From an uncultured Clostridia bacterium (GTDB lineage: Bacteria; Bacillota; Clostridia; Christensenellales; UBA3700), in assembly GCA_947176265.1 (NCBI GenBank), contig CAMWQA010000002.1, forward strand, positions 321 to 64,320: a DNA stretch of 64,000 bases, read 5' to 3'. The notes under the pieces were generated by a model that was given only the letters and a program-made list of their open reading frames with translations, did no database searches and was not told the origin of the DNA. The stretch's first letter is position 1, and every line of letters begins with the position of its first letter. The translations under genes and the position numbers were made by a program. Positions 2,808-57,522 of the stretch are shown here, one piece after another.

Positions 2808-3590
2808 TTACTTTTTATCGGTAAATTTGCGAACTTTCATTGCATACTTATCGGAAGCTTTTGCATTATCCATATACTTTTTAAATACTCCAACGTAGTC
2901 CGAAAGTCTATCGTTTTCTCTAAAAGAATAGTAGCCTTCGGACGCAATGATTATATGGTCAATTACGACGATACCCAACACTTCGGCAGCAGAGATTAGC
3001 CACCTCGTAAATTCGCAATCGTCAAAAGACGGCAAGGGATTACCCGACGGATGATTGTGCGCGAGCATAATACAATTGCCTTGCGAATCTGCCGTACGCA
3101 TAATAAACTCGCGTGTGTTTAACTGACAGGTATCGATATTCCCCACTCCGATTTTGCAACTTGAAAGCAACATGCCCTTTGCGTTGAGAATTAGCATATA
3201 CATAGCCTCTTCTTTTTCATTCAAGAATAGCTGTTGAAAATACTCCACTGCGTGAGCAACCGTATCAAGCATAGGTTTCGGTCCAAACTTTTGGAGATTG
3301 TATCTTTTGATAATTTGCGGAAGCACGTTGAGAAACAAAGCGGCGTTGTCCGTCATATTTTTGACATCTAAGAGCACTTTTGGCGAAGCGTCAAACACAT
3401 TCTCAAGACTGCCGAACTTATCAATTAAATCATGCGCAATGGGATTGGTATCTTTATAAGGAATGAAAGGATAAAGCAGATATTCCAAGACTTCGTGATC
3501 AGGCAAATAAGCAATACCCTGATTCTTGATTTTTTCTTTCACTCTCTCGCGGTGTCCTTGATGAGGATTGTTTTTCTTCTCTTGCGCCAT
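2808..3590 (-). CDS. radC: RadC-like JAB/MPN domain protein
   Basis: 260 aa. N-terminal HhH-like region (LIDKFGSLENVFDASPKVLLDV) and the JAMM signature MLAHNHPSGNPLPSFDD. Confidence 0.85.
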   Translation of the reverse strand: MAQEKKNNPHQGHRERVKEKIKNQGIAYLPDHEVLEYLLYPFIPYKDTNPIAHDLIDKFGSLENVFDASPKVLLDVKNMTDNAALFLNVLPQIIKRYNLQKFGPKPMLDTVAHAVEYFQQLFLNEKEEAMYMLILNAKGMLLSSCKIGVGNIDTCQLNTREFIMRTADSQGNCIMLAHNHPSGNPLPSFDDCEFTRWLISAAEVLGIVVIDHIIIASEGYYSFRENDRLSDYVGVFKKYMDNAKASDKYAMKVRKFTDKK

Positions 3591-3625
3591 TTTATCTTTT
3601 GTCTCTGATTGATATAAATTTTGTA

Positions 3626-4501
3626 TTAAGCCGCTTCTCCGCTACCCGTAGATACAGGCGTAGTCTTATAATTGATTTTTGCATTCTTGATACTGTCAAG
3701 AAAACCGATAATCGTACTCGTCGGGATTGCGCAACTTAAGCCGTAGGTACTGCCGCCATCTATTCCAATTCTTGAGCAGATGATCCCGCACACTCTGCTA
3801 TACGCATTGAACACAGGTCCTCCGCTGTTGCCGTGATTGATATTGCCGTCAAGTACTATCGAATTAAAACTATCGCCTGAATTTAGTTTTATTTCGGGAT
3901 TGCCAACAGTCAACTCCGAGAGAACAAGACCTATATTCTCGGGATTGCCGATAGTATATAATCTTTCGCCATAATAGAGTTTCCTTTGAGTCTCGAATAC
4001 AACAGGTTGGAACTTGTTGGATAAGAGCGGCATATCGATTTTGAGCACTGCAAGATCGGCAGACAAACTATATGCGATAAGCTTTACTTCTTTATACTGT
4101 ATGTTGTCGGCAAATACTACGCTGTAATCGGCAGACATGGGCTTATCCGACGCATTCTGAGGCACATCGCTGCTTGTCGAAGAGAATCTAACCACGCCAT
4201 GTCTATTGGTAAGCACGTAACCGTTTTCCGATATAATAAAACCGCTGAGAGCGCTGGTCGTGATCGTAGAGCCGTTCTTGTATTCTGCTATTACACGCAC
4301 GCAAGACGCGATATTATTGTTTGCCACTATGCTTGCGGTGCGCGCGTCGTCTACAGTCCCGATATCGATATAGTATCTAGTCGGGTCGGCTTTGTTCACA
4401 AATATGCTGTCGCACGCTGTCATAGACAACGTCAAAACAACTGCGAGTATCAAAAGTATTACTACAAAGCTTCGCTTTTTCATTATTTTGTCAAACTCCA
4501 T
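3626..4501 (-). CDS. Trypsin-like (S1C/HtrA-like) serine protease, probable lipoprotein
   Basis: Signal/lipobox LTLSMTAC. Catalytic triad contexts LTNRHGV (His), DLAVLKID (Asp) and GNSGGPVFN (Ser). An alternative ATG at 4483 would remove the 19-nt overlap with the upstream gene. Confidence 0.8.
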   Translation of the reverse strand: MEFDKIMKKRSFVVILLILAVVLTLSMTACDSIFVNKADPTRYYIDIGTVDDARTASIVANNNIASCVRVIAEYKNGSTITTSALSGFIISENGYVLTNRHGVVRFSSTSSDVPQNASDKPMSADYSVVFADNIQYKEVKLIAYSLSADLAVLKIDMPLLSNKFQPVVFETQRKLYYGERLYTIGNPENIGLVLSELTVGNPEIKLNSGDSFNSIVLDGNINHGNSGGPVFNAYSRVCGIICSRIGIDGGSTYGLSCAIPTSTIIGFLDSIKNAKINYKTTPVSTGSGEAA

Positions 4502-5328
4502 TTTTCCGTATGTACGACTTCTTCGCCCACTGCCATACTCTTGATTGGAGAGAGCGTCTCTATCTCCAACATAATATCGTTGGTGTACGTCTCGATATTG
4601 CAGTGATGGTCGCCGTACTCGCCTTCGGGAGAATTTATCTCAATAGTAAACTTCATGCCCTTGATATCCACGCTGACCGGTCCGCAGGCGAAAGTGCCAA
4701 TTTTAATAGGCTGTTTTACGTCTTTTTGTTGCAAGGTAATAGCGTCGTTGAGTATGCAAAGTCTGTCGTCCTTAAGATCGGTATAGCTCCAAAGCGTGAT
4801 ATTTCTATTGGGAAGCAATCCCGTGTCTTCCGTAGATATTGGAATATACGCTTTTGCCGTCTTATCCATTACGGACAGAGCCCACAGCGCAACCGGCGGC
4901 GTAACGCATTTTCCTTTGTTGACAAATTTATGCTCCAATCTAGCGTCGCCCATTTCGTCCATAGTTATCTTAATACTCTTTTGCAATCCCGTTGTACTCT
5001 CAACTTCGCTGACAAAAGTCACGCTCTCGCCCTCTTCAACGACTTGAACGGGCGCATTATCGGGATAATACGTGTCAAGATACTCGGGGCATTTCCAAAG
5101 TCTGTGTCCGCCGTAGATATGCCAAATGCCCTTGCCGGGGAGATTGGTATCGAAGTATTCTCCGCCCTTGTTGATAAGGTCTTTCTCGTCTTCATAGAAA
5201 ATATTCTCTCCGCCGTCAAAACCGTAATATATCACTCTCGGGCCAAGGTCAACTGTGACTAGCATCGTCTTGCCGCCCCTTGACAATTTTGCGCATTTGC
5301 CATATTGTTTATAATCTACGTATTGCAT
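4483..5328 (-). CDS. Hypothetical cytoplasmic protein
   Basis: The long ORF runs 4483-5340. The second ATG (5328, MQYVDYK...) has GGAG 6 nt upstream. I recognise no family motif. Confidence 0.6.
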   Translation of the reverse strand: MQYVDYKQYGKCAKLSRGGKTMLVTVDLGPRVIYYGFDGGENIFYEDEKDLINKGGEYFDTNLPGKGIWHIYGGHRLWKCPEYLDTYYPDNAPVQVVEEGESVTFVSEVESTTGLQKSIKITMDEMGDARLEHKFVNKGKCVTPPVALWALSVMDKTAKAYIPISTEDTGLLPNRNITLWSYTDLKDDRLCILNDAITLQQKDVKQPIKIGTFACGPVSVDIKGMKFTIEINSPEGEYGDHHCNIETYTNDIMLEIETLSPIKSMAVGEEVVHTEKWSLTK

Positions 5329-5370
5329 AAATATCTCCATTCGATTAAATTATATTTGCTAAACAACATT

Positions 5371-5399
5371 ATTTTATCACACTATTTTTGCGATTTCAA
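5371..5399 (-). promoter_or_regulatory. sigma-A-type promoter (extended -10) for the 4483-5328 gene
   Basis: Minus strand: TTGAAA (5394-5399), 17 nt, TGaTAAAAT (-10 at 5371-5376). Confidence 0.45.
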
Positions 5400-5454
5400 G
5401 ACTAATAAAATTTTTTTAATATATTTATATAAAGATTTTACAATCATTCTAATT

Positions 5455-5481
5455 AAAAAGTGGAACGCGTTTGCGTTCCAC
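5455..5481 (-). terminator. Rho-independent terminator of the giant gene 5489-12025
   Basis: A 9-bp stem GTGGAACGC/GCGTTCCAC (5460-5481) with a 4-nt loop, followed on the minus strand by TTTTTAATT. It begins 8 nt after the stop codon. Confidence 0.7.
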
Positions 5482-5488
5482 TTACCGG

Positions 5489-8400
5489 TTATTTTTTGCT
5501 TTTTATTGCGCGTTGTTCTTTGAGCAAGTCTTGATATCTTTCGATTTGATCCTCTCTGAGGTCTATCATATTCTTTGCTACCTTGCAAGCCTGCGCGTCG
5601 GATATTATGACTTCCGTCTCTTTGACTTTGACCTTTGTGCCGTCGCTAGTCGCGTCTCTCTTGATGTCCTTCAAATACTCGTCTTCCATCTTAAAGAGCG
5701 CCACTACGGTGTCTTTCTTGATTGTCAACTTCATAAGAGGATTGACCGTAGACTGCCCGAATACTATGAAGTAAGTCGATTTCTTTTCCTTGCACTTGTC
5801 TTTCGTCAATGCGTACTGTCTCAATCCGTCGAAATACTTTTGCTGTTGTTTAGACAATTGAGCGTAAGCTTCGTCAAGAGAGAGCTTGGGCGCAACTTCT
5901 TTTTTAGTTTTAATAGGCGCAGATGCTTCAATCGGAACTTCAACTTTAACCTCTTTCTCTATTATTTTCTCGACGACTTTTTCTACCGGTACTTCCTTGA
6001 CGATTTCTTTTTCTACTATTTTCTCTACCTCGACAGGGACTTCAACTTTGACTTCCTTCTCGACTATCTTTTCGACAATTTGCGGTTCTGCATCTTGCTT
6101 CTTTGCCATCTCGTCAAGTCTTTGCATAATCAATTTTTGTCCTTCAACAAGGTTCTTTATCGTCTCGTCGTTAGCGCCCCCTACAGCCACTTCGCGCGCT
6201 ATGACTTTCTCGACAGGCTGTTGCTCGGAAAGTCTTTGCATAATCATCTTTTGTCCCTCTACTAGGCTCTTGATTATATCGTCATTATTGGACGGTACGA
6301 CAGTTGCGGCAACCATTGCATTTGAACTTATTTGATCTTGCAGTCTTGCAATCGTGTCGTTTAGCCTTTGGATTGTATCGTCGCCCATCGAGGATTGCTG
6401 TACTGGCGGTAATTGCTGAATATTGCGCGACATAGCGTCGTCTATCATACCTTGGATTGCGCCCATATCTATGGCTGCGCTTTGTACCCCTTGTCCGCCG
6501 CCGTTGTTGCCAAGCATTCCCATAAGCATCATCTGCATTTGGTCGGCGCGTTGTTTGTTCTCTATCTCAGCTTTGTTTGCGTTGTACTCGTCTCTTGCAT
6601 TTTCAAGCTCGCGTTCTGCCTTGTTGTATCCGCTCTTCTCTATCAACATAAATACAAAGCTCAATACTCCAAGTCCCATAAGTACGCAAGCTATCGCAGT
6701 CCATGCCGTCATTGACAAGCCGAACAAGCCTACCATTCCCGCATAATACGCCGAATTGTATTTATTCTTTATCGTATTCTTGGCTTGTTTTTTCTTGCTT
6801 GCGTAACTAATACCCTTTGAAGTAAATATAATAATCAATATAATACTAATTACGCTAGCAATGATTTGCCACCACTCTTTAAGCACTTCTCCTACTTTGC
6901 CAAAGTCAACTACTCCTCCCGTCTTGTTTTCTTCGGGGTCTTTATTTCCTTGCGCTTTCGGGTCGTACGTAACTTGTTCTACGACATCTTTATTTACGTC
7001 TATAATATCGTAGTTGCCATTGTCAATCTTAGCGATTACTTTTGCATACTCCATACCGTCGGCGATTTCTGCCAAAGTAAGTTCAAAGCCGTCTGCGTCA
7101 AGATAGGTATACTTAAACTCTATATCGCTATGTCCTCTGACTGTCAGCTTAGGTAAGCCGTTGGCGTCAGTAGCCCATACCAAAGTATTTTGCGATACCG
7201 TCGCCTTGTCTATCTTCACGGTATACGTATAGCTGTCATTGCTTCCGTCCTCCCAAGTATAGACTTCTCCGTCTAGACTTACCGTTATTGTATATTCTCT
7301 CGCGTCCGTCATTTCCTCTACGTCAAACTTGACTCCCTTTCCCGCAGGTTTCTTCAAGAACTCTTCGACCGTGTGAGTATTGCCGTCGTAGGTTATTGTC
7401 TTTTCTTCGTCGAATATCGGCTTTGCAACCTTGACTGTACCCAAACTTATGGACAAAGTCTTTTTGCCGATTATCTCAATATCATTCTCATAGCCTGCTT
7501 TTGCGCACAGCTCTTTGGTATAGATTTCGCCCAACTGCATATTATTGCTGTTGACAGTATTGCCCTTGCTGTCGGTAATTCTATAGCTAACAAAAGCTTT
7601 TACCCAAGTATCTAGATTAACCGTCGCATTTTCATTACTACCTTGCCATTCCTTGACGTCTATCTTGTATTTTTCTACCTCTACCGTATATCCGGTTGGA
7701 TCGGGACGATCTAGCCACAACACGTTCGTCACGTCAGAATTAGAAGTGGGCGCTATAAGCTCAAACTTCACTAGATATTCTCCCGCCTTGATTGCCTTGT
7801 ACTGCTTATCAGTCAAATGGTCGTAATCATCTCCACTCAAACCTGCGTATTCTTCGCCGTCTTTTGTTACAATCATATTTATATACAATTTCCAATCGTT
7901 GTCGGTAATTCCAAACATACCTGCAAAGTCATGTACTTCGCCGTCAAACATAGTCCAACTTCCGTCATATACAGGCTTGTCTAACTTCTTTGGCTCAACT
8001 TCCCAATTGAATTTTGTAAGCAATCCGCTTGGCATTACCAAAGTTTCATAATTATTCGTGTCAAAGTTGTCAATACGATACGTTGTGGAATAACTGCCTA
8101 CTTCAGTCGTTCCGTCAGTTGTGCCAGTGTACTTAATAAAGTCTTTCAACTCGTCAGGTACGTTGATGAGTTTAACGGTGTACTTGACTTCTCCGCCCTC
8201 TATTCTCGTATACGGTAAATTATCTGTGTAAGCGATTTCGTCCGCGCTTACTCCTACGGAATATCCCCATACGATATTCGACGCGTCTATCTTGGCTTTT
8301 GCTATACTCCAAGATAGCGAATCGGGGAAATTAGGCGCATTGTAATTATCGGTATCGTACGTGTAAGTAACTTGCGCGGTATATGCGCTTCCCGCGTTAG

Positions 8401-11400
8401 TCTGCTCGTTTCCGCTTACTGTAATTGTCAAATTATCAATGCCGTCTTTGCCCTCTAACGTCAACGTGTGCGGAGTTGTATCATAAGTCATAGGTTGTAT
8501 TTCGCTACCGCTTGCGTCAAGCCACTTGCTCTGCGTTAAATCATAAGTCGCGTTCACTACGTTGCCGTCTTTATCGGTGTGCGCGTACGTCCATTTAAGT
8601 CCGCTTACGTCAAAGTCGGCTTTGATTATCTTAAATTCAAACTCTGCGCTGTCGTTATCTATATAGTTGAGATCTCCGCCGTAATTCAACTCTGCCGTAA
8701 CTCTATAATTTCCCACCGTCGTAGGCGCGTCGGTTGAATACGAAGTGCTTCCGTCCTTGAAATATTTGAGCGTAATATTTGCGGGTATAATTCCGCCGTC
8801 TGTCTTGGTTATCTCTATCGTCGGCGCAATGGCTTGCCCCGTATATGCAATTTCCGCATCGTCTATATTATTGCCGTTGTATTTGAGTATCAACGTAACG
8901 ACATATTTATCTTTACCTATCGTAAAGGTATACTCGTTTGTACCGGCTTTGAACTTATAATTTCCTGCGTGCGCCGTCTTGAGCGTAGCAACAGCCTTAA
9001 ACGTCATCTCTTGCGTTACGTTGGTTGGCAAGGTCGTAACGACGTTATTGCTGCTGTCATAATAGGTATAATCTACCATTGAGTCTACGTCAAGATTACC
9101 TATGCTTTTGAGAGTAGGCAATTTATAAACTGTACTGCTTCCATTGTTATCGTCTTTCCAACTTACGTCCAAAGTAGCTTGCTCAATAGCCCAAGCAAAG
9201 TCAAAATCAAAACTTCCCTCGTAGGTATCAGTCGCTCCCTTCGTAGGTACGTAATAGTTATCGGTATCGCTTACTATAAACGTGACAGTCGTGGTATACG
9301 GACCTACAGGCATTTTATCGTTGCCGGTATACTTTACACTCAAACCTTGCGGTAAACTTCCCGACAGTTCCATACTCTGCGCTATACCTTTTTTGTACTC
9401 CGTAGTATTAGTTGTCGGCCAACTCAACCCCGACAAATCGTATTTAGCCTTGTCTATTGAATAGTTCAAAGTATACTGCGAATTGTGAGTCTCGTAAGTA
9501 TTGTCGTAGTTAGTGACGTACACTGTGACGGAATACGTACTCTTTGCGTTTGTGACGTTGACGTCTCCGCTATAGCCATTTGTACCCTTCGTTATATCTA
9601 CCTTTGCGCCGTTTGTTCTCAATACGGTTGCGTCTACGCTGAATTGATATGCGTTGCCGCTGTAAATCAACTTAACGTTGCTAGTGTCGGTAATGACGGT
9701 ATTGTTGTACATCCATACTATCTTTGACGCGTCTATCGTCACAGCGCTACCCTTGACGGTAAACATCGCCGTCTTAGGTACGTCTAAAGAATAATTATCA
9801 TTGTCATTGTTGCTGCCGTACAGCTCTACTCCAATAGTGTAACTGCCTTGCGCTATATCGCCCGGCATAGTGATAGTTCTCGTATTACCGACTGTAACTT
9901 TATTTGCGTTGATTCCATCGTGCTTTACCGACGGATTTTTACTGTCGATATAATAGATATATAAATCCGTAGTATCGGTAGTGAAAGAATCTTCGTCAAT
10001 AATAATCGTCGGGGTATCTCCTACGTTCCACTCCCAACCTGCAGCTGAGCAAGTTATAGTTATGATTAAAGGTTTCTTCGTTATCTCATAGTCAAAGTAT
10101 TGCGCTCCTATACTGCCGTCGGGCCATTGCGTAGATACTCCGTTATCCGCAAGCGTGGCTTTAACTTTATACTGTTTAGCGTTCTTTGCAATCAAAGTAT
10201 TGGTATTGCGATTGTCGTCTTTCCAAGACATACCGTCGGGCAATTCAAAACTTATATCAGAATTATTTCCACCCATCAATGTGAACTCAATATAGTCGCC
10301 TATGTATTCTTGAGTAGACAGCCCTGATTTCGCCGGCAGCGTTACGTCCTTCTTATTTATTTTGAACGAGATTGAATACGTATCATCCAACTCATAACTA
10401 CAGTCGTTGGTAATTATTGCAGTCGCAGTGTAAGTACCGACCGCAGTAGGTAAAGTCGTCGTTGAACCACTTAAACTTGCTCCCGAATACGAAAAGCCAA
10501 GCGTAGGCGCTCGCCCGTTTGCCTCGGTGTCGCCTGTAAATACGTCGCTCAAGTTAGCCAGCGATACAACAGGCATTTCGTTTGTATCCTTTGCAACTAC
10601 TACGCCTATTTTCTTTTTTGTGATAGTGTAAGTAAAGTAACGTACCGTTTCACTTTCTTTATGAATTGGATCTGAAATATCGGGAGTACCTGAAAATTTA
10701 AGTCCGCTTTCTTCTGCCAAATCAGGATCTATCTCTGCTTTAATCGTGTATTTTCCTGCGTTTTTCATTCCGGTAGACGGATAGGTCAACGTAATTTTGG
10801 CGCTGTCAAACCAACTTGTCTTTGTTTCGTCAGTTATGTCTGCCAAAGTCTGGTCTTGACCATTATATGGATTCGTTACATCCACCGGCTCTTCCAAGCC
10901 CAAATAACCTGCCTTTGCCGCCGCCTTGCTTAAATTGAGATGAAATGCGGGACGAACCATATATGAATTATCTATCCATGAATTAGACATACCGTTGCCA
11001 CCCTTGTTTAACAGATAAGCATGATATGAACTAGTACAACTACCTGAGCGAGTCCAGTAATAAGATTGATAAGAGTTGTTGAAATTACAACTAAAGCGAG
11101 TATTACTGGATGCTTGCCATATTCCATCTACATCACTTACTCCGGTCTCCGCTACACTTGGAAGCCACAAGCTATCTGAACCCCAATTCTTATAACCGGT
11201 CTTGTTCAAAAATGATCCAGCCGCTCCGTCACCGCCTACATATAGTGCGTCGTTGTTGTTATTGTATTTGTAATCAGTCGTATATGCCGATGCCGTCACG
11301 CTGTTTTTTGCATATTGATAACGTTGCCACGATACATTGTTAGGCACTTCAATAAATGATTTAAGACTTCCCTTAGCGCTCGCCATTGTGTATATCGCAT

Positions 11401-12025
11401 ATCTACTACTTCCATCTTGATTGACAGAGGTCAATTTTGACGCATCGTATGATTCTGCATAAGAACCGCCATTGTTTAGAGTAACTGCGCGCATATAACT
11501 CGTTCCATACATACTGTCTGGATATTTGATCGTACCTGTTGCGTTAGAAGACGAGCTACTAGTATGCCATTTGGAATTTGTGCTACTTGATTCTATAGTG
11601 TTTGCCGCCCACAACGTAAGTATAGGAGCCCCGCTCGAATTCTGCGACAAATATGTAGCAATCCAATTTGCTCCGTTTATCTTGACGACTACGTCATTGC
11701 CGTCATTATAACTTCTAAAGTCTGCGCTGGTCTTTGTCATTGAATTCAAAGCGCTCATTTCACTGAGTTTGGTCACATCGCCATTGGTAATTTGGCTCAT
11801 AAGCGTCCAAAATACTTCTCCGTCAAAAACGTTGCCTGTAGGATCATCTGCATAACCTGTTAACAACATTTCATCAAGATTTGTGGATTGCGTGTCAAAA
11901 TATACAATAGCCTGCGCTTTTTGACCTATCCCCGATATTATTCCTATACAACTCATTAGCATTGCAAGCGCCAATATTGACGCTATAAATATCGTTATTC
12001 TCTTTGTCTCTTTTGTCTTATTCAT
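5489..12025 (-). CDS. Giant membrane-spanning surface protein 1 (2178 aa): head domain, Ig/MBG-like repeats, TM segments, long cytoplasmic tail
   Basis: N-terminal signal/anchor (ITIFIASILALAMLMSC). Head domain with LWLPS...YWTRS...VRPAFHLNL motifs. Many roughly 90-aa modules with YxG...AGxY...NY signatures. TM segments encoded at about 6641-6874, then a 383-aa charged tail. GAGGAA RBS at 12029-12034. Confidence 0.9.
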   Translation of the reverse strand: MNKTKETKRITIFIASILALAMLMSCIGIISGIGQKAQAIVYFDTQSTNLDEMLLTGYADDPTGNVFDGEVFWTLMSQITNGDVTKLSEMSALNSMTKTSADFRSYNDGNDVVVKINGANWIATYLSQNSSGAPILTLWAANTIESSSTNSKWHTSSSSSNATGTIKYPDSMYGTSYMRAVTLNNGGSYAESYDASKLTSVNQDGSSRYAIYTMASAKGSLKSFIEVPNNVSWQRYQYAKNSVTASAYTTDYKYNNNNDALYVGGDGAAGSFLNKTGYKNWGSDSLWLPSVAETGVSDVDGIWQASSNTRFSCNFNNSYQSYYWTRSGSCTSSYHAYLLNKGGNGMSNSWIDNSYMVRPAFHLNLSKAAAKAGYLGLEEPVDVTNPYNGQDQTLADITDETKTSWFDSAKITLTYPSTGMKNAGKYTIKAEIDPDLAEESGLKFSGTPDISDPIHKESETVRYFTYTITKKKIGVVVAKDTNEMPVVSLANLSDVFTGDTEANGRAPTLGFSYSGASLSGSTTTLPTAVGTYTATAIITNDCSYELDDTYSISFKINKKDVTLPAKSGLSTQEYIGDYIEFTLMGGNNSDISFELPDGMSWKDDNRNTNTLIAKNAKQYKVKATLADNGVSTQWPDGSIGAQYFDYEITKKPLIITITCSAAGWEWNVGDTPTIIIDEDSFTTDTTDLYIYYIDSKNPSVKHDGINANKVTVGNTRTITMPGDIAQGSYTIGVELYGSNNDNDNYSLDVPKTAMFTVKGSAVTIDASKIVWMYNNTVITDTSNVKLIYSGNAYQFSVDATVLRTNGAKVDITKGTNGYSGDVNVTNAKSTYSVTVYVTNYDNTYETHNSQYTLNYSIDKAKYDLSGLSWPTTNTTEYKKGIAQSMELSGSLPQGLSVKYTGNDKMPVGPYTTTVTFIVSDTDNYYVPTKGATDTYEGSFDFDFAWAIEQATLDVSWKDDNNGSSTVYKLPTLKSIGNLDVDSMVDYTYYDSSNNVVTTLPTNVTQEMTFKAVATLKTAHAGNYKFKAGTNEYTFTIGKDKYVVTLILKYNGNNIDDAEIAYTGQAIAPTIEITKTDGGIIPANITLKYFKDGSTSYSTDAPTTVGNYRVTAELNYGGDLNYIDNDSAEFEFKIIKADFDVSGLKWTYAHTDKDGNVVNATYDLTQSKWLDASGSEIQPMTYDTTPHTLTLEGKDGIDNLTITVSGNEQTNAGSAYTAQVTYTYDTDNYNAPNFPDSLSWSIAKAKIDASNIVWGYSVGVSADEIAYTDNLPYTRIEGGEVKYTVKLINVPDELKDFIKYTGTTDGTTEVGSYSTTYRIDNFDTNNYETLVMPSGLLTKFNWEVEPKKLDKPVYDGSWTMFDGEVHDFAGMFGITDNDWKLYINMIVTKDGEEYAGLSGDDYDHLTDKQYKAIKAGEYLVKFELIAPTSNSDVTNVLWLDRPDPTGYTVEVEKYKIDVKEWQGSNENATVNLDTWVKAFVSYRITDSKGNTVNSNNMQLGEIYTKELCAKAGYENDIEIIGKKTLSISLGTVKVAKPIFDEEKTITYDGNTHTVEEFLKKPAGKGVKFDVEEMTDAREYTITVSLDGEVYTWEDGSNDSYTYTVKIDKATVSQNTLVWATDANGLPKLTVRGHSDIEFKYTYLDADGFELTLAEIADGMEYAKVIAKIDNGNYDIIDVNKDVVEQVTYDPKAQGNKDPEENKTGGVVDFGKVGEVLKEWWQIIASVISIILIIIFTSKGISYASKKKQAKNTIKNKYNSAYYAGMVGLFGLSMTAWTAIACVLMGLGVLSFVFMLIEKSGYNKAERELENARDEYNANKAEIENKQRADQMQMMLMGMLGNNGGGQGVQSAAIDMGAIQGMIDDAMSRNIQQLPPVQQSSMGDDTIQRLNDTIARLQDQISSNAMVAATVVPSNNDDIIKSLVEGQKMIMQRLSEQQPVEKVIAREVAVGGANDETIKNLVEGQKLIMQRLDEMAKKQDAEPQIVEKIVEKEVKVEVPVEVEKIVEKEIVKEVPVEKVVEKIIEKEVKVEVPIEASAPIKTKKEVAPKLSLDEAYAQLSKQQQKYFDGLRQYALTKDKCKEKKSTYFIVFGQSTVNPLMKLTIKKDTVVALFKMEDEYLKDIKRDATSDGTKVKVKETEVIISDAQACKVAKNMIDLREDQIERYQDLLKEQRAIKSKK
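5927..6079 (-). repeat. Coding tandem repeat (VEK/VEV short-period repeats) in the tail of giant protein 1
   Basis: Translates to IVEKIVEKEVKVEVPVEVEKIVEKEIVKEVPVEKVVEKIIEKEVKVEVPIE. The periodicity is also visible at the nucleotide level (repeated ttctc/gac/ttt units). Confidence 0.65.
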
Positions 12026-12035
12026 AATTTCCTCA

Positions 12036-12158
12036 TTCCAAAAAAGGTATACTTTTACTGACCCAAAGGTATTGCAAAATTTCTATGCTTGAAGTATAAT
12101 GTATTTGAGAAAAAGTGCCCTTTCACGGGCAGTCAGTAAAAGTATACTTTTTTTGGAA
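12036..12158. repeat. 27-bp inverted repeats (26/27) flanking a 69-bp segment that contains a consensus promoter (candidate invertible promoter)
   Basis: Left arm 12036-12062 (ttCCAAAAAAGGTATACTTTTACTGAC) and right arm 12132-12158 (GTCAGTAAAAGTATACTTTTTTTGGaa). The spacer holds TTGCAA (12072-12077), 17 nt, TATAAT (12095-12100) on the plus strand, pointing away from the giant gene. Confidence 0.7.
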
Positions 12159-12190
12159 AAGTTAAAAATCCCATTAAATAAGACTATTAT

Positions 12191-12230
12191 AAGAATAAAA
12201 ATACGGCTCTCCACTTATGGAAAACCGTAT
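12191..12230 (-). terminator. Rho-independent terminator of trmL
   Basis: Minus strand: ATACGGTTTTCC-ATAAGT-GGAGAGCCGTAT (12-bp stem including two G-U pairs), followed by TTTTATTCTT. Confidence 0.55.
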
Positions 12231-12253
12231 TGACAAATTGATAATTTTTAAAT

Positions 12254-12808
12254 TTAATTAAATGATTTTGTAAGTTTGCCCACTTCGTTGAGCCCCTTAT
12301 ATCCGTGTTGGCGATGGTACTCGTAAATAATTATCGCTACGCTGTTGGCAAGATTGAGCGAACGCGCTTCTTTGCGCATCGGTATGCGTACGCAGTCGGC
12401 GTAATTTTCGTGCAACAACTCTTCGTCAAGTCCTTTGGTCTCTCTGCCGAAAAATACCCAGCAATCCTCATTATATTTGACGTCGGTGTGATTGTGGTCG
12501 GACTTGGTAGACGCAAAGAAAAACTGCGCCCCGCTATTTACTTTGGTATTCTTGACAGCCAAAGCTACGTTGTCGCAAGTATCCGCTTTATCGCCGAAGT
12601 TTACCGACAAAAAGGCTTGCATATTCTCATAGCGATTTACGTCGGAGATTTCCCAATAGTCAAGTCCGCTACGCTTGAGATACTTGTCTTCCCAACTAAA
12701 TCCGCACGGCTCGATTATATGTAACTTTGCGCCCGTAACTGCGCAGGTGCGGACTATATTGCCTGTATTATTTGGTATCTCGGGGTTTACTAATACTACG
12801 TTTATCAT
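12254..12808 (-). CDS. trmL: tRNA (cytidine/uridine-2'-O)-methyltransferase, SpoU/TrmL family
   Basis: 184 aa. VVLVNPEIPNNTGNIVRTCAVTGAKLHIIEP, the FGRETKGL motif and C-terminal SLNLANSVAIIIYE are typical of TrmL. An insertion of about 30 aa is present mid-protein. Confidence 0.85.
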   Translation of the reverse strand: MINVVLVNPEIPNNTGNIVRTCAVTGAKLHIIEPCGFSWEDKYLKRSGLDYWEISDVNRYENMQAFLSVNFGDKADTCDNVALAVKNTKVNSGAQFFFASTKSDHNHTDVKYNEDCWVFFGRETKGLDEELLHENYADCVRIPMRKEARSLNLANSVAIIIYEYHRQHGYKGLNEVGKLTKSFN

Positions 12809-43194: not shown

Positions 43195-43232
43195 AATTCC
43201 CTCACTTATGATTGCTGATTTATTACACGTTT

Positions 43233-43266
43233 ATTTTAGAATATAAACCTTAAACATACCTTAAAC
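43233..43266 (-). promoter_or_regulatory. Activator-type promoter candidate: two 11-bp-phased GTTTAAGGT repeats replacing the -35, plus a TAAAAT -10
   Basis: Plus-strand ACCTTAAAC at 43247-43255 and 43258-43266. Minus-strand TAAAAT at 43233-43238, 8 nt downstream of the proximal repeat. No TTGACA-like hexamer lies at the proper distance. Confidence 0.4.
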
Positions 43267-43390
43267 TTTTTTACCGCCTATATATACGCGTGCAATAATA
43301 GATAACGATTGGTCATATTTTTAACGCTATGCCCACTATATCTAGTGCACAGTGTCAAATAAAGCACTAAAAACCCATCAAAAAGCCTTT

Positions 43391-43412
43391 ATAAATTTTA
43401 CATAAATTTTAC
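43391..43412. promoter_or_regulatory. Exact tandem duplication of an 11-mer (ATAAATTTTAC x2), possible regulator binding site
   Basis: 43391-43401 and 43402-43412 are identical. It lies 43 nt downstream of the response-regulator stop and about 200 nt upstream of the giant-operon start codon. Confidence 0.4.
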
Positions 43413-43454
43413 ATTTGAATTATTAAAAGTTTCTTAAAATAGAATAAATATATC

Positions 43455-53995: not shown

Positions 53996-54970
53996 TTAAC
54001 GCTTCATATTAGCATTTAGGTAATCCGCAACAGCTTTTGCTATATACCAAAACATTACGGGAGGAATCGCATTGCCAATTTGCCTATATGCATCACCCTC
54101 GGTTCCCTCGAATATGAAAGATTCTGGAAAAGATTGTATTCGCGCTGCCTCGCGAGGTGTAAACCTTCTATACAACTCTTTTGCTGGATCAACTAGTAGA
54201 ACAGGATCTCGTGAGTTAATGCTTGTTTTTGCAAGATGACTCGTTATCGTTAGACAAGGAGTATCCAAAGATTGCGCCAAACCACGTTTCATATTGTTTT
54301 TAGCATTTTTCATGCCTAGCACCGCTTTTTCGGAAAAATAGTACTTTGCTTCTGATATTGCAAGTGTAGGAATAGCAACAGATAGAGGCACCCAATTTTT
54401 TGCGTTTGGCTTTTGTGGAAACTGAAATGCTTGAGTCATATCTTTTCGGACACAAATCATAATCATTCTTTCCCTCTTTTGAGGAACTCCATAGTCAGCA
54501 GCATTGACTAATTGACAATATGTAAAATAACCAGCATCATCAAAAGCATTTCGAATTGTTTGTAATATTTGACCATTGTGCAAAGTCATCAAGCCTTTAA
54601 CATTTTCGGCTATACATATTTCAGGCTGTTTATCTTTTGCTATGCGGACCATCTGTTTGTATAGATTTGCTCTATCATCAAAAGGGTCTTTTGTTGGATT
54701 GACGGTGCTAAATGATTGACACGGAAAACCACCAACCAAAACATTATGTGCAGGAATTTCATTTGAAGGTGTCTCACAAATATCTTTGCAAACAACTTGT
54801 TTAGTACGAAAGTTTGCCCTTAATGTATTGATTGCTTTTTCATTTATATCAGTCGCATAAATTATATCAAACGGCAACTTATTATAAGTTTTATTATTGT
54901 AATTAAATCCTCCAATAATACCACAATCGGCGCCGCCGCAACCACAAAACAATGAAACTACTTTATACAT
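53996..54970 (-). CDS. DNA (cytosine-5)-methyltransferase (second MTase of the island)
   Basis: All core C5-MTase motifs are present: FCGCGG (I), FPCQSFS (IV), ENV (VI), QKRER (VIII), TPREAARIQSFP and GNAIPP (IX/X). GGAG RBS inside the upstream gene's last codons. Confidence 0.9.
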   Translation of the reverse strand: MYKVVSLFCGCGGADCGIIGGFNYNNKTYNKLPFDIIYATDINEKAINTLRANFRTKQVVCKDICETPSNEIPAHNVLVGGFPCQSFSTVNPTKDPFDDRANLYKQMVRIAKDKQPEICIAENVKGLMTLHNGQILQTIRNAFDDAGYFTYCQLVNAADYGVPQKRERMIMICVRKDMTQAFQFPQKPNAKNWVPLSVAIPTLAISEAKYYFSEKAVLGMKNAKNNMKRGLAQSLDTPCLTITSHLAKTSINSRDPVLLVDPAKELYRRFTPREAARIQSFPESFIFEGTEGDAYRQIGNAIPPVMFWYIAKAVADYLNANMKR

Positions 54971-54972
54971 AA

Positions 54973-56376
54973 TTACTCCAAAACCGTATCAACTGCATTA
55001 TTTGTAAAATCAACTCTATAAATAGTAGGGACTATTTGTATTATGCCTTTCTTTTCTTTTTCATAAATATTTTTTAATGTAAAGACGACAACACCATCTC
55101 TAACAAAATATACTCTATAAATAGAATAAAATTCTTTATGCTGTTGAGCAGCCACCCATTCATTTCGGGTAATATTTATTGTATCCATCCAAGTATCATC
55201 TGTAATATTAGGAGCAGTAACTCGTTTAGTAGATTTTACCTCAATATATTTTACAAATTCCGCATTTTCGCCGTTCTCTGCAATAACTGACTGAATATCA
55301 TACCCCAAACCTTTCGTTCGCCCCAATGGCAACACTTTGTTAACCAATCTCGGATTGAAATTCTCAACCCTTTTTCTCTCATACTCATATACAAATTGTT
55401 CGCCCTCATCACCAAGTTCAACTTTTGAGTCACTATTTGAATGAGCTTTCACGGTCTGTTTTTCTTCCTCTATAATTAAAGCCTCAACCTTTGTATCAAA
55501 AATAGATGCTTCGTCGCTTATTTTAGAATAGTAAAAATCCCAAGATTGATATAATTGCTCTCTCCCCTCTATACTTGTAGTATCAAATGCATACATATCA
55601 AATGCAGGTTTTGCAAGACAACATTGAGCAAACACATTTATGCAAGCCGATTCTTTTTTGTTTAGGACAACTTTTTTATCATCATTTATGTAGATTAAAT
55701 TTGATAATTCTAAATAGTTTATTTGCTCTCGAATATGTTGCATCGTATACGATGTTGCTTTATCTGCGACAACAATTTTGCGTTTAATTCCACATTCCTT
55801 ATCGATTTTTATTTGTTCTAAAACCTCTTGCGGAGTTGATTTACCTTGCAACACATCCAACGAGTTCAAGATATAATAGCCAATATCGTTAATACTTAAT
55901 TTCATATTTATTTCTTCAGCAATCATCAAACATTTAATAATAAAAGGATATGGGCGCAAAGAAATTTTTAAATCAAGATGAGGTTGTAAAGTTTGAATTT
56001 TATTCATCCCATTTGGAAATTGCATTTTATAACATACGTCTTTAAAAAAAGCTGGTTGATCATTATCACTCAAAAATTTCTTTGTCCTTTCCGAGGCATA
56101 AAATACTCCGTCAGCCGATAGATAATACATACCGAACAATTTGCCAGCAATTTCCGTTCTATGATTATCCAAAGTCTTTTTTAATACTACTGAATTTGAT
56201 TTTTTACCATGCAAGACCTTCACAAATTCTTGATTAAACCGATTTTCAAATTCTTCTTTTACACAAGGACAAATCTCATCTATAACCATTGCGTATGCCG
56301 GCAATAAATTATCCAATTCTCGCTGGGATTTTCCTCTAATAATTATACACCTGTATTGATTTGAATGATTATACAT
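54973..56376 (-). CDS. Putative restriction endonuclease (C-terminal PD-(D/E)xK, DUF3883-like domain; N-terminal 300 aa unknown)
   Basis: 467 aa sandwiched between two MTases with an 8-nt overlap and a 2-nt gap. The C-terminal segment GEQFVYEYE...GLGYDIQSV...FVKYIEVKST...NEW gives a D...ExK nuclease signature. AAGGAG RBS. Confidence 0.6.
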   Translation of the reverse strand: MYNHSNQYRCIIIRGKSQRELDNLLPAYAMVIDEICPCVKEEFENRFNQEFVKVLHGKKSNSVVLKKTLDNHRTEIAGKLFGMYYLSADGVFYASERTKKFLSDNDQPAFFKDVCYKMQFPNGMNKIQTLQPHLDLKISLRPYPFIIKCLMIAEEINMKLSINDIGYYILNSLDVLQGKSTPQEVLEQIKIDKECGIKRKIVVADKATSYTMQHIREQINYLELSNLIYINDDKKVVLNKKESACINVFAQCCLAKPAFDMYAFDTTSIEGREQLYQSWDFYYSKISDEASIFDTKVEALIIEEEKQTVKAHSNSDSKVELGDEGEQFVYEYERKRVENFNPRLVNKVLPLGRTKGLGYDIQSVIAENGENAEFVKYIEVKSTKRVTAPNITDDTWMDTINITRNEWVAAQQHKEFYSIYRVYFVRDGVVVFTLKNIYEKEKKGIIQIVPTIYRVDFTNNAVDTVLE

Positions 56377-57451
56377 AATTACTCCTTAAATAATCTAAAA
56401 TTTGTCGAGCAATTGCTTCTGCCAAAAGTGGCGGAACAGCATTCCCAACTTGTTTTAGCTGGCTCGTTTTAATTCCAAAAAATCTAAATTTATCTGGAAA
56501 AGATTGAATACGCGCCGATTCTCTTGCTGTAGGGACTCTATTCTCTTTATAGTGGAAATGATGATTATGCCCCGTATCAATTGTAAAACAAGGCTTTGTA
56601 CTATCCATTCGTGTCCACGCTATATGCACCTTACGTGTGTGCCAAAGATCTCGTGGCAAATCTAAATAATTGCCGCCATCAGGTACCATACTTATTATTT
56701 CTTTCGTTTTAGTATTATGTATCGTAGCCACATGATTCCACAATGTATCGCAGCCTTTTCGCATTTGATATTGATAATCAGTCATAGGCGGTAATTTGTA
56801 TTGAGTTTCATCAGGCAAAGCCACTTCATCTGATATAAAATCCAAATCCGAGATAGCGTCTCTACAAGTTACTTTTTCACCTTGCGTTGTTACAATAGGA
56901 AAATCAAAAAATCTTTCGCTAAACAATTGCCGATTTAACCCAACAAAAAACACTCTACGCCTATGCTGAGGTACACCATAATCATCAGCTGATAAGATTT
57001 TCCACGACACATTATATCCAATGTTCGAAAAATCTTCTAACACAGAATCTTTTATTTTACCACCTGCCATACTAATCAACCCTGGCACGTTCTCCATTAC
57101 AAATACTTTGGGCTGAATTTCTGCAACCATTTGAACAAATGACTTATAAAGAATATTGCGAGGGTCATCAATCATCCTTTTGCCAGAAATTGAAAAACCT
57201 TGACAAGGTGGACCACCGATTATAACATCAACATAAGATTTTTTAGTATTTGCAACTTCAAGCAAATCTTGAGCAGACAATTTTGTGATATCTTCATTTA
57301 TAATTGCACTTGTAGGGAAATTATATTTATATGTATTTGTCGCATCCCCCCACATATCTACGCCCAAAATTGGGGTATATCCTGCTTGTACAAACCCTTG
57401 AGTAAATCCGCCACATCCACAAAATAAATCTATAAATTTTAAATTATTCAT
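56369..57451 (-). CDS. DNA (cytosine-5)-methyltransferase (first MTase of the island)
   Basis: FCGCGG (I), PPCQGFS (IV), ENV (VI), QHRRR (VIII), TARESARIQSFPD and GNAVPP (IX/X). ATG at 57451 (MNNLKFIDLF) is preferred over the TTG at 57469 given by the ORF track. Confidence 0.9.
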   Translation of the reverse strand: MNNLKFIDLFCGCGGFTQGFVQAGYTPILGVDMWGDATNTYKYNFPTSAIINEDITKLSAQDLLEVANTKKSYVDVIIGGPPCQGFSISGKRMIDDPRNILYKSFVQMVAEIQPKVFVMENVPGLISMAGGKIKDSVLEDFSNIGYNVSWKILSADDYGVPQHRRRVFFVGLNRQLFSERFFDFPIVTTQGEKVTCRDAISDLDFISDEVALPDETQYKLPPMTDYQYQMRKGCDTLWNHVATIHNTKTKEIISMVPDGGNYLDLPRDLWHTRKVHIAWTRMDSTKPCFTIDTGHNHHFHYKENRVPTARESARIQSFPDKFRFFGIKTSQLKQVGNAVPPLLAEAIARQILDYLRSNYV

Positions 57452-57522
57452 CCTTTTAGTCCTTTTCAATTGATTCTATATTTTGTGGCTTTGTCCAATA
57501 TTCTCTAACTTATCCGAACACC

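Follow-up and report, generated by a model that had tools for sequence, protein, structure and literature searches.

The window, i.e., the whole 64-kb stretch of DNA that was analysed, carries on its minus strand a giant gene (5489–12025) for a protein of 2178 amino acids with an N-terminal signal/transmembrane segment, a DUF6273 domain, C-terminal transmembrane segments and a conserved C-terminal domain. The start region of this gene (12023–12034, minus strand) is composed of the ATG codon at 12023–12025 and a GAGGAA ribosome-binding site at 12029–12034. Its upstream neighbour, on the same strand, is a trmL-like gene for a SpoU-family tRNA methyltransferase (12254–12808), transcription of which is predicted to end at an intrinsic terminator hairpin at 12200–12231 (minus strand). 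An exact-protein look-up returned no identical protein on record for the giant protein, and the exact trmL and GNAT proteins were found only in the source MAG contig and in one 1.4-kb contig that ends inside trmL.

Between these genes, with trmL outside the putative switch, lies an element of 123 bp (12036–12158), which is composed of two 27-nt arms that are complementary at 26 of 27 positions (96%) and are separated by 69 nt. In an inverted-repeat scan these arms form the strongest short-range inverted repeat anywhere in the 64-kb window, and the 25-mer arm sequence is found at just two sites in the window, i.e., the arms themselves, where shuffled sequences lead one to expect 0 matches. The gene-side arm (12036–12062, sequence TTCCAAAAAAGGTATACTTTTACTGAC, conserved to 98% in the family described below) harbors a palindromic GTATAC core at 12047–12052 and, just outside this core, a gene-side-specific G at 12046 (arm position 11). 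In the terminator-side arm (12132–12158, sequence GTCAGTAAAAGTATACTTTTTTTGGAA) the GTATAC core is located at 12142–12147. Each arm is a near-palindrome of the form CA..AAAAGTATACTTTT..TG, where AAAAGTATACTTTT is a 14-bp palindrome.

The 69-nt interior (12063–12131), of which paralogous and orthologous copies are found facing either way between conserved flanks, carries a predicted promoter and a small hairpin. The sigma-A-type promoter is located on the plus strand at 12072–12100 (TTGCAA at 12072–12077, a 17-nt spacer and TATAAT at 12095–12100); it scores 10 of 12 against the consensus and is predicted to direct transcription toward trmL, i.e., away from the giant gene. On the minus strand, a terminator-like site (12107–12131) is composed of the hairpin TGCCCGTGAAAGGGCA (12131–12116) followed by the T-run CTTTTTCTC, which in the present orientation faces transcription that arrives from the trmL side. 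The function of this reverse-strand hairpin as a terminator is uncertain, its stem being short (4–5 bp), and the promoter and terminator activities of the element are predicted from sequence features. Outside the element, the segment at 12159–12199 (aagttaaaaatcccattaaataagactatta...) is homologous to a ~45-nt spacer found behind most members of the family, and the trmL terminator occupies the same position as the flank terminator of the family; the window copy thus has every flank part that is found in the family. A candidate fixed promoter, TGGAGA-N16-TATAAT (12213..12186, minus strand, 10 of 12 to consensus), faces the giant gene and overlaps the trmL terminator. Transcripts from this site would be expected to stop in the present orientation because of the minus-strand hairpin and T-run at 12131–12116. 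At the matching place in other copies the motif TAAAAT is frequent, as judged by eye.

A sequence-only reading that preceded this work had described the two arms, reverse complements at 26 of 27 positions around 69 bp, and the plus-strand TTGCAA-N17-TATAAT promoter that points away from the giant gene; the inverted-repeat analysis and the promoter scoring bear out both. That reading had placed the arm 2 nt from GAGGAA, where the actual gap between the outer arm end at 12036 and the ribosome-binding site is 1 nt, and its statement that no convincing fixed sigma-A promoter lies between the trmL terminator and the start codon of the giant gene was too strong in view of the match at 12213..12186. 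This minus-strand match and the internal minus-strand hairpin with its T-run had both been missed. It had also reported that the window encodes no recombinase, and the present searches agree: neither a recombinase nor a transposase domain was found in the window by Pfam analysis of all plausible open reading frames, tblastn and motif scans.

Computed folding of the minus-strand RNA of the element region yields a 27-bp stem with an energy of −54.7 kcal/mol (z = −7.3). A scan against Rfam 15 gave only matches below the gathering score (28 bits compared to 65.3, and 23.7 compared to 58.7). A small RNA as the primary function was rejected, as the plus-strand transcript folds no better than shuffled sequences (z = −0.48) and contains no ATG.

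The element family and its genomic context

A search with a 21-nt arm pattern in one genome per GTDB species identified at least 98 stretches, and the GTDB matches listed all come from about 10 MAG species that bear the label Clostridia, Christensenellaceae or Christensenella. The same pattern was found in 28 stretches of JGI metagenome contigs. When arms were paired among the GTDB and JGI matches listed, about 79 complete elements of 122–134 bp were obtained, together with about 36 half elements at contig ends. The window element is one member of a multi-copy family.

With the promoter reading rightward, family members share a layout of arm, CCAAAG..., TTGCAA, a variable 17-nt spacer, TATAAT, about 16 A-rich nucleotides, a GC hairpin and the second arm. 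Conservation across 43 aligned copies is 98% for the promoter-side arm, 93.5% for the hairpin-side arm, 98.8% for the −35 hexamer, 100% for the −10 hexamer and 77% for the promoter spacer. Promoter scoring of 61 family copies placed the promoter at element position 36–37 with an N17 spacer in essentially all of them, and gave no comparable conserved promoter on the opposite strand, where the best match is weak. The internal hairpin displays modest covariation (compensatory change) in the family alignment, and in a subclass of 133–134 nt it is replaced at the same position by a longer stem of different sequence. By minimum-free-energy folding, at least 31 of 60 copies have a hairpin with a T-run behind it on the non-promoter strand, compared to 0 of 60 on the promoter strand. 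Sister families in related MAGs have the same architecture and fully palindromic arms, GTCAG[AT]AAAAGTATACTTTT[AT]CTGAC; the near-palindromic arms of the present family and the fully palindromic sister arms fit a site for a dimeric recombinase. Collections of plasmids and phages contained no sequence similar to the element.

The setting of the copies is as uniform as their layout. A large open reading frame with a signal peptide or transmembrane segment begins 7–500 nt from one arm in every listed copy with enough flank, and the proteins beside other copies are paralogues of the giant protein of the window (25–68% identity) with a strikingly conserved C-terminal stretch of 144 amino acids. On the non-gene flank, most copies are followed by the ~45-nt spacer (..GAAAAAT..ATTAAATTAG..TTGAATAAAA) and then by a strong intrinsic terminator of variable sequence. 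In what follows, copies in which the promoter points away from the gene are referred to as OFF and those in which it faces the gene as ON. The first 150 nt of the non-gene flank contain a terminator in 32 of 43 OFF and 5 of 6 ON copies; for the gene flank the corresponding numbers are 8 of 44 and 1 of 6. Among copies with readable flanks, none was found inside a gene or at an arbitrary intergenic site.

At the window locus itself, relatives with a trmL that is 86–90% identical have neither the giant gene nor the element after trmL, and homology stops at the stop codon. These trmL relatives therefore provide neither a clean empty site nor a flipped copy, and the unit of terminator, spacer, element and giant gene therefore looks, from these sequence comparisons, like a lineage-specific cassette at this site.

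The search for a recombinase was extended to the window together with the related loci (about 0.93 Mb), in which no serine or tyrosine recombinase was found by tblastn, with Hin and XerD as queries, or by regular expressions for catalytic motifs.

Orientation of the interior and segregation of the arm halves

The orientation of each copy was assigned by scoring the promoter relative to the gene side and the spacer/terminator side. Seen against these fixed flanks, about 57 of the listed copies are OFF and about 10 are ON (L007, L051, L064, L065, L079, L086, L004/L094+L041, L105, L112 and L117). In the ON copies the hairpin-side arm is followed after 11–290 nt by the gene start, with the spacer and terminator at the other end, behind the promoter. 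Orientation differs at four loci that were matched across related taxa. The ON copy L079 shares with the OFF copies L118 and L060 a terminator-side flank that includes an HD-domain gene and is 92% and 87% identical, respectively, over more than 600 nt; L086 (ON) pairs with L055 (OFF); and the matches of L105 (ON) with L009 (OFF) and of L117 (ON) with L036 and L044 (both OFF) are limited to the terminator-side flank. For the window locus there is one assembly, in the OFF orientation, and its gene flank combined with the arm pattern gave 0 matches in the JGI metagenome contigs. The species from which the window derives is rare in public data. Where the same locus of one species could be compared between two assemblies, no orientation polymorphism was seen: the pairs L031/L121 and L081/L107, matched on both flanks, and the pair L056/L109, matched on one, are all OFF. 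A search within MAGs for one flank joined to both ends of the interior gave paralogue-level matches only (95–97%).

A marker within the arms makes it possible to follow the two halves of an arm separately. Arm position 11 is either A or G, and in all 36 informative arms the G is found on the gene side, whichever way the promoter points: it is in the promoter-side arm of 31 OFF copies and in the hairpin-side arm of 5 ON copies (L064, L065, L079, L086 and the half element L091), and never in the terminator-side arm. If the marker travelled with the element, a split of this kind among the first 21 informative copies would have an exact probability of 1/5985 (~1.7e-4). Variants of the inner arm (ACTGAC to CTTGAC or CCTGAC), on the other hand, are confined to the hairpin side in both states. 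Since the position-11 marker tracks the flank and the inner-arm variants track the hairpin side, the outer half-arm is part of the flank and the inner half is part of the invertible segment, which places the crossover inside the arms, near the palindromic GTATAC core. Two ON copies, L105 and L112, carry A in both arms at position 11, though their closest paralogues carry G.

Contig ends in two MAGs offer a further view of these junctions. In JAIDRT01, the contigs of L088 and L091 open with an identical stretch of 77 nt, which covers interior positions 8–68 and the inner arm up to GTATAC, and then branch, with A at position 11 and the terminator-side flank on one contig and G and the gene-side leader on the other. 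The end of contig_20 and the start of contig_56 (L041) share an identical 77-mer in which the arm lies between a single nucleotide of interior and 49 nt of gene flank, and in JAIDUV01 the contig of L071 ends precisely at the inner edge of the arm. Exact overlaps of 77 nt presumably are the trace of a de Bruijn assembler with k = 77 at branch points. The branch positions in JAIDRT01 are those expected of a two-state invertible segment in mixed orientation; we treat them as suggestive because paralogous loci with identical interiors do occur (contig_20 compared to contig_47).

Several other explanations of this family can be considered. The terminal inverted repeats, the small size (122–134 bp), the presence of dozens of copies per genome and the many contigs that break inside the element are all traits of a promoter-bearing, MITE-like non-autonomous transposable element that had inserted either way upstream of many genes. 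The sequence-only reading had noted that many copies with target-site duplications would point to such an element; many copies of the arm do exist elsewhere, but direct repeats of at least 3 nt flank 1 of 60 copies, which is at or below the shuffled expectation. Neither a transposase with matching ends in the window and related loci nor a match in the plasmid or phage collections was found, a clean empty site is lacking (the trmL relatives that have no element also have no giant gene), and the context is stereotyped, with the start of a surface-protein gene on one side, the conserved spacer and terminator on the other, and never a position within a gene. Furthermore, site-specific inversion with a crossover within the arm predicts outer half-arms that remain with the flank, as in the 36 of 36 arms above, whereas insertion of a mobile element in either direction does not. 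Taken together, these observations make a transposable element very improbable. The inverted repeat could also be a product of chance or purely structural, for example a bidirectional terminator or an operator pair, with no DNA rearrangement involved; a 14-bp palindrome in each arm could indeed serve as the operator of a dimeric regulator, and the region adjoins a terminator. However, chance predicts 0 arm matches, and operators or terminators leave unexplained the reversed interior that about 10 copies show between the same flanks, and we consider this explanation improbable in the extreme.

A different proposal accepts the family as functional and makes it static, i.e., a fixed module that no longer flips, in which a non-coding transcript of about 130 nt runs to the terminator, the long hairpin and the terminator act on RNA, and the inversions are rare evolutionary events such as RecA-mediated exchange between the 27-bp repeats. 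Consistent with this proposal, about 85% of the listed copies share the orientation away from the gene, the same-species pairs that were compared agree in orientation, the minus-strand RNA forms the very stable 27-bp stem, and no recombinase was found in the ~0.93 Mb of the window and related loci. Under such a scheme, however, about 57 giant genes would have no conserved promoter facing them, and arms that hardly vary across about 10 species, next to a promoter spacer that varies freely, point to recognition by a protein. The ON copies, moreover, have a normal architecture with the gene 11–290 nt downstream, and a mostly-OFF state is typical of multi-gene phase-variable families; cwpV of Clostridioides (C.) difficile, for example, is ON in ~5% of cells (PMC2784873). 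A corrected hand count of junctions also gave a higher ON-type share in half elements at contig ends (about 8 candidate ON-type compared to 19 OFF-type junctions, 6 of these ~8 assigned solely because no gene was found in the flank) than in complete copies (6 of 50 ON). A fixed module is thus unlikely.

The proposed switch and related systems

We consider it likely that the element is an invertible promoter (inverton), i.e., a phase-variation switch, which was assembled in the OFF state. This was also the interpretation of the sequence-only reading, and it is supported at the level of the family by the presence of both orientations and by the flank-bound position-11 marker; flipping at the window locus we infer. 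According to the proposed mechanism, a site-specific recombinase encoded elsewhere in the genome would bind both 27-bp arms and exchange strands at or near the GTATAC cores, such that the ~95 bp between the cores would flip. In the OFF state, the sigma-A promoter would transcribe toward trmL, yielding a transcript of about 130 nt that would meet the flank terminator, while the reverse-strand hairpin and T-run would stop transcription that reads through from trmL or begins at the weak TGGAGA/TATAAT site. Because the promoter points away from the giant gene and the hairpin and T-run oppose transcription from the other side, this gene is probably silent in the assembled orientation. Inversion (x → 24194 − x) would move the −10 hexamer to about 12094–12099 on the minus strand, so that the promoter would face the giant gene, a geometry that the sequence-only reading had predicted with correct arithmetic, including a leader of about 60 nt. 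In this ON state transcription would start near 12087, with a leader of about 60–62 nt into GAGGAA-ATG, and the hairpin would then have no T-run. Dozens of these cassettes would be present per genome, the window copy being one, and each would guard a different paralogous giant surface protein; with one cassette per protein a population could vary which of these proteins are displayed.

A more far-reaching possibility, which we put forward tentatively and with more doubt than conviction, is that a single recombinase acting in trans controls a standardised set of insulated promoter/terminator cassettes of 123 bp throughout the genome (20–30 per genome), switching individual giant adhesin-like proteins in Christensenellales. 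As all arms are identical, the same enzyme would in this case also act on pairs of arms at different loci, so that whole terminator-spacer-inverton-giant gene cassettes would move and large blocks would be inverted. Such recombination between loci would explain why the giant gene of the window and the operon downstream of it are absent or inverted in close relatives.

The inverton proposed here shares traits with several known systems. As in fimS of Escherichia coli (FimB/FimE) and hin/hix of Salmonella, a promoter resides on an invertible segment between short inverted repeats, and each arm, like a hix site, is imperfectly palindromic over about 26 bp, as would befit the binding site of a recombinase dimer; the GTATAC center is symmetric, whereas the core dinucleotide of hix is asymmetric. 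In both fimS and hin the switch exists at one locus, the recombinase gene lies beside or within it, and the segments measure 314 bp and about 1 kb, respectively. The Correia elements of Neisseria are of similar size, have terminal inverted repeats, occur in many copies and supply promoters or terminators to neighboring genes. Correia elements have TA target duplications and are inserted in many contexts; in the present family there is no such duplication, the context is uniform, and the two halves of an arm segregate with flank and interior.

Within the class Clostridia, the cwpV switch and other RecV-dependent switches of C. difficile (PMC2784873, PMC5386303) likewise control a surface protein, RecV is encoded elsewhere in the genome, and the assembled genome is in the OFF state with ON cells a minority. 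In cwpV the invertible region is 195 bp long, is bounded by 21-bp imperfect repeats and contains no promoter, and in the OFF state a stem-loop with a U-tract in the leader terminates transcription (PMC2784873). Unlike cwpV, the present element has a consensus promoter inside, in addition to the weak outside candidate promoter (12213..12186) and a hairpin and T-run that in silico are found in the OFF state only. In the proposed mechanism the flipping of a promoter, as in fimS, would be combined with a terminator in the OFF state, as in cwpV. Furthermore, C. difficile harbors a handful of switches with dissimilar repeats, compared to dozens with near-identical arms in the present family.

Judged by analogy, in scale and logic the present family most resembles the mpl family of Mycoplasma (M.) penetrans and the invertons of Bacteroides. 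The promoter invertons of the capsular polysaccharides of Bacteroides fragilis are flipped by the global serine invertase Mpi. Inverton groups identified with PhaseFinder in Bacteroidota and Akkermansia share inverted-repeat and embedded promoter motifs, are dispersed, control surface structures, have a presumed "master" recombinase acting in trans and are mostly OFF in the consensus, as proposed here. The Bacteroides invertons, many of which share one repeat motif (PMC11892184), differ from the present family in phylum, in the repeat motif and in the promoter, which is of a −33/−7 type rather than the sigma-A TTGACA/TATAAT type; their invertible segments of roughly 170–230 bp serve polysaccharide operons, compared to 69 nt and single giant protein genes here. 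In M. penetrans, according to the summary of Horino et al. 2003 given in PMC2268961, most of the 38 lipoprotein genes of the mpl (P35) family have their own adjacent invertible promoter. As outlined in that summary, a large paralogous surface-protein family is spread over several chromosomal loci with individual small, adjacent invertible promoters that are thought to be independent, and recombinases act on many sites, which is the arrangement that we envisage here. The differences are a mollicute host with lipoproteins of ~35 kDa rather than a gut anaerobe of the class Clostridia with giant proteins of 1000–2600 amino acids, an unrelated arm, here with the GTATAC palindromic core, and here the built-in reverse-strand terminator-like site and the conserved flank terminator; candidate recombinases adjoin the mpl genes, whereas none was found near the present copies. 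The mechanism is of a known kind. The family itself, the clade that hosts it and its scale appear not to have been described in the literature searched: full-text searches on invertible promoters or phase variation combined with names beginning in Christensenell, searches with the arm sequence, and two large inverton surveys contained nothing on this family.

Implications for possible surface variation in Christensenellales

Christensenellales form a gut lineage that is heritable, associated with health and scarcely represented in culture. If the switches flip as inferred, dozens of giant surface proteins can be turned ON and OFF independently of one another in these uncultured, Christensenellales-like gut bacteria, which would amount to a capacity for surface and antigenic variation comparable to that of Bacteroides capsules or mycoplasma lipoproteins. 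The literature searches returned no description of such a capacity in this clade. Should a single recombinase act genome-wide, this variation would be combinatorial and would operate in Firmicutes at the scale of Bacteroides capsule switching. The proposed switching would also account for the fragmentation of MAGs at element sites, and the 21–27-nt arm would constitute a ready sequence tag for the regulated surface proteome. The compact recombination site, with 27-bp arms and a cargo of 69 bp, would make the missing recombinase worth finding. In annotation, the giant gene should be treated as phase-variable and as probably silent in the assembled state.

Variants of the inverted-repeat element in related loci

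The probable promoter inverton upstream of the giant gene has relatives with other arm sequences. A more diverged member is located at positions 5036-5185 of L132 (and is found also in L133), where L132 is a related locus with a trmL gene that is 90% identical to that of the window. This element, with the arms TTCCAAATAAAGTATACATTTCCTGAC and GTCAGGAAATGTATACTTTTCCTGAC, lies upstream of a gene for a 1250-aa signal-peptide protein, and relative to the window family it retains the core GTATAC while the arm ends are changed.

A sister family, found in other metagenome-assembled genomes named 'Christensenella sp.', displays the same architecture as the window family, i.e., gene start, arm, TTGACA-N17-TATAAT, arm, spacer and terminator. 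Here, the arms are full palindromes, GTCAG[AT]AAAAGTATACTTTT[AT]CTGAC, at a spacing of ~135 nt. Copies are located at L018 1028-1190 and L027 6342-6503, and further loci of this family are L014, L061, L070, L102, L106, L122 and L125.

In a subset of the element copies (L005, L025, L043, L079, L095 and others), the inverton is separated from the gene by a conserved leader of ~150 nt or longer, which harbors the motifs ..TACAAACTTTGATTTATAGTCGAAA adjoining the arm, a palindrome, TATAGAATTTTCTATAC, and CCAAAATTTGTAT. The window copy has no such leader, since its arm lies directly next to the ribosome-binding site. Another short repeat, GAGATTTCTCC...(ACG)GTCGAAATGACA, is also abundant. It is REP-like and occurs in both orientations in the flanks of numerous related loci (L005, L025, L035, L036 and L049, for example); in many copies of the element it is inserted beside the flank terminators and within the long leaders. 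This repeat was not found in the 64-kb window.

Other large genes and repeats in the window

Three consecutive giant open reading frames (2184, 1924 and 2653 aa) occupy positions 22889-43194 on the minus strand and gave no Pfam match whatsoever. No copy of the element was found upstream of this row, where positions 43195-43454, after a response-regulator gene, are an ordinary intergenic stretch. Positions 53996-57469 hold a restriction-modification cluster, in which the gene for a BpuJI-N-domain endonuclease lies between two genes for C-5 cytosine DNA methyltransferases. Within the endonuclease gene, at 55957-56084, there is an inverted repeat of 25 nt with 80% complementarity.

The giant protein and its chromosomal setting

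Beyond the C-terminal transmembrane segments of the giant protein, the final ~144 aa (window 5489-5920) are 75-86% identical among paralogues (L088, L021, L085, L060, L083 and others), which outside this region are 25-40% identical. The segment has no match in Pfam and appears to be a conserved module that is presumably cytoplasmic.

Comparison with window 2808-12025 showed that in L136, L139 and L142, where trmL is 86-88% identical to that of the window, the RadC, trypsin-like and 282-aa genes directly follow trmL on the opposite strand, and the giant gene is absent. In two other relatives, L129 and L132, trmL is instead followed by a phosphoglucomutase gene. The window also has the RadC, trypsin-like and 282-aa genes; there they come after the giant gene and share the strand of trmL. 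This difference in strand and gene order indicates that, relative to L136, L139 and L142, the RadC block is inverted in the window, and that the giant gene and its inverton are additions.
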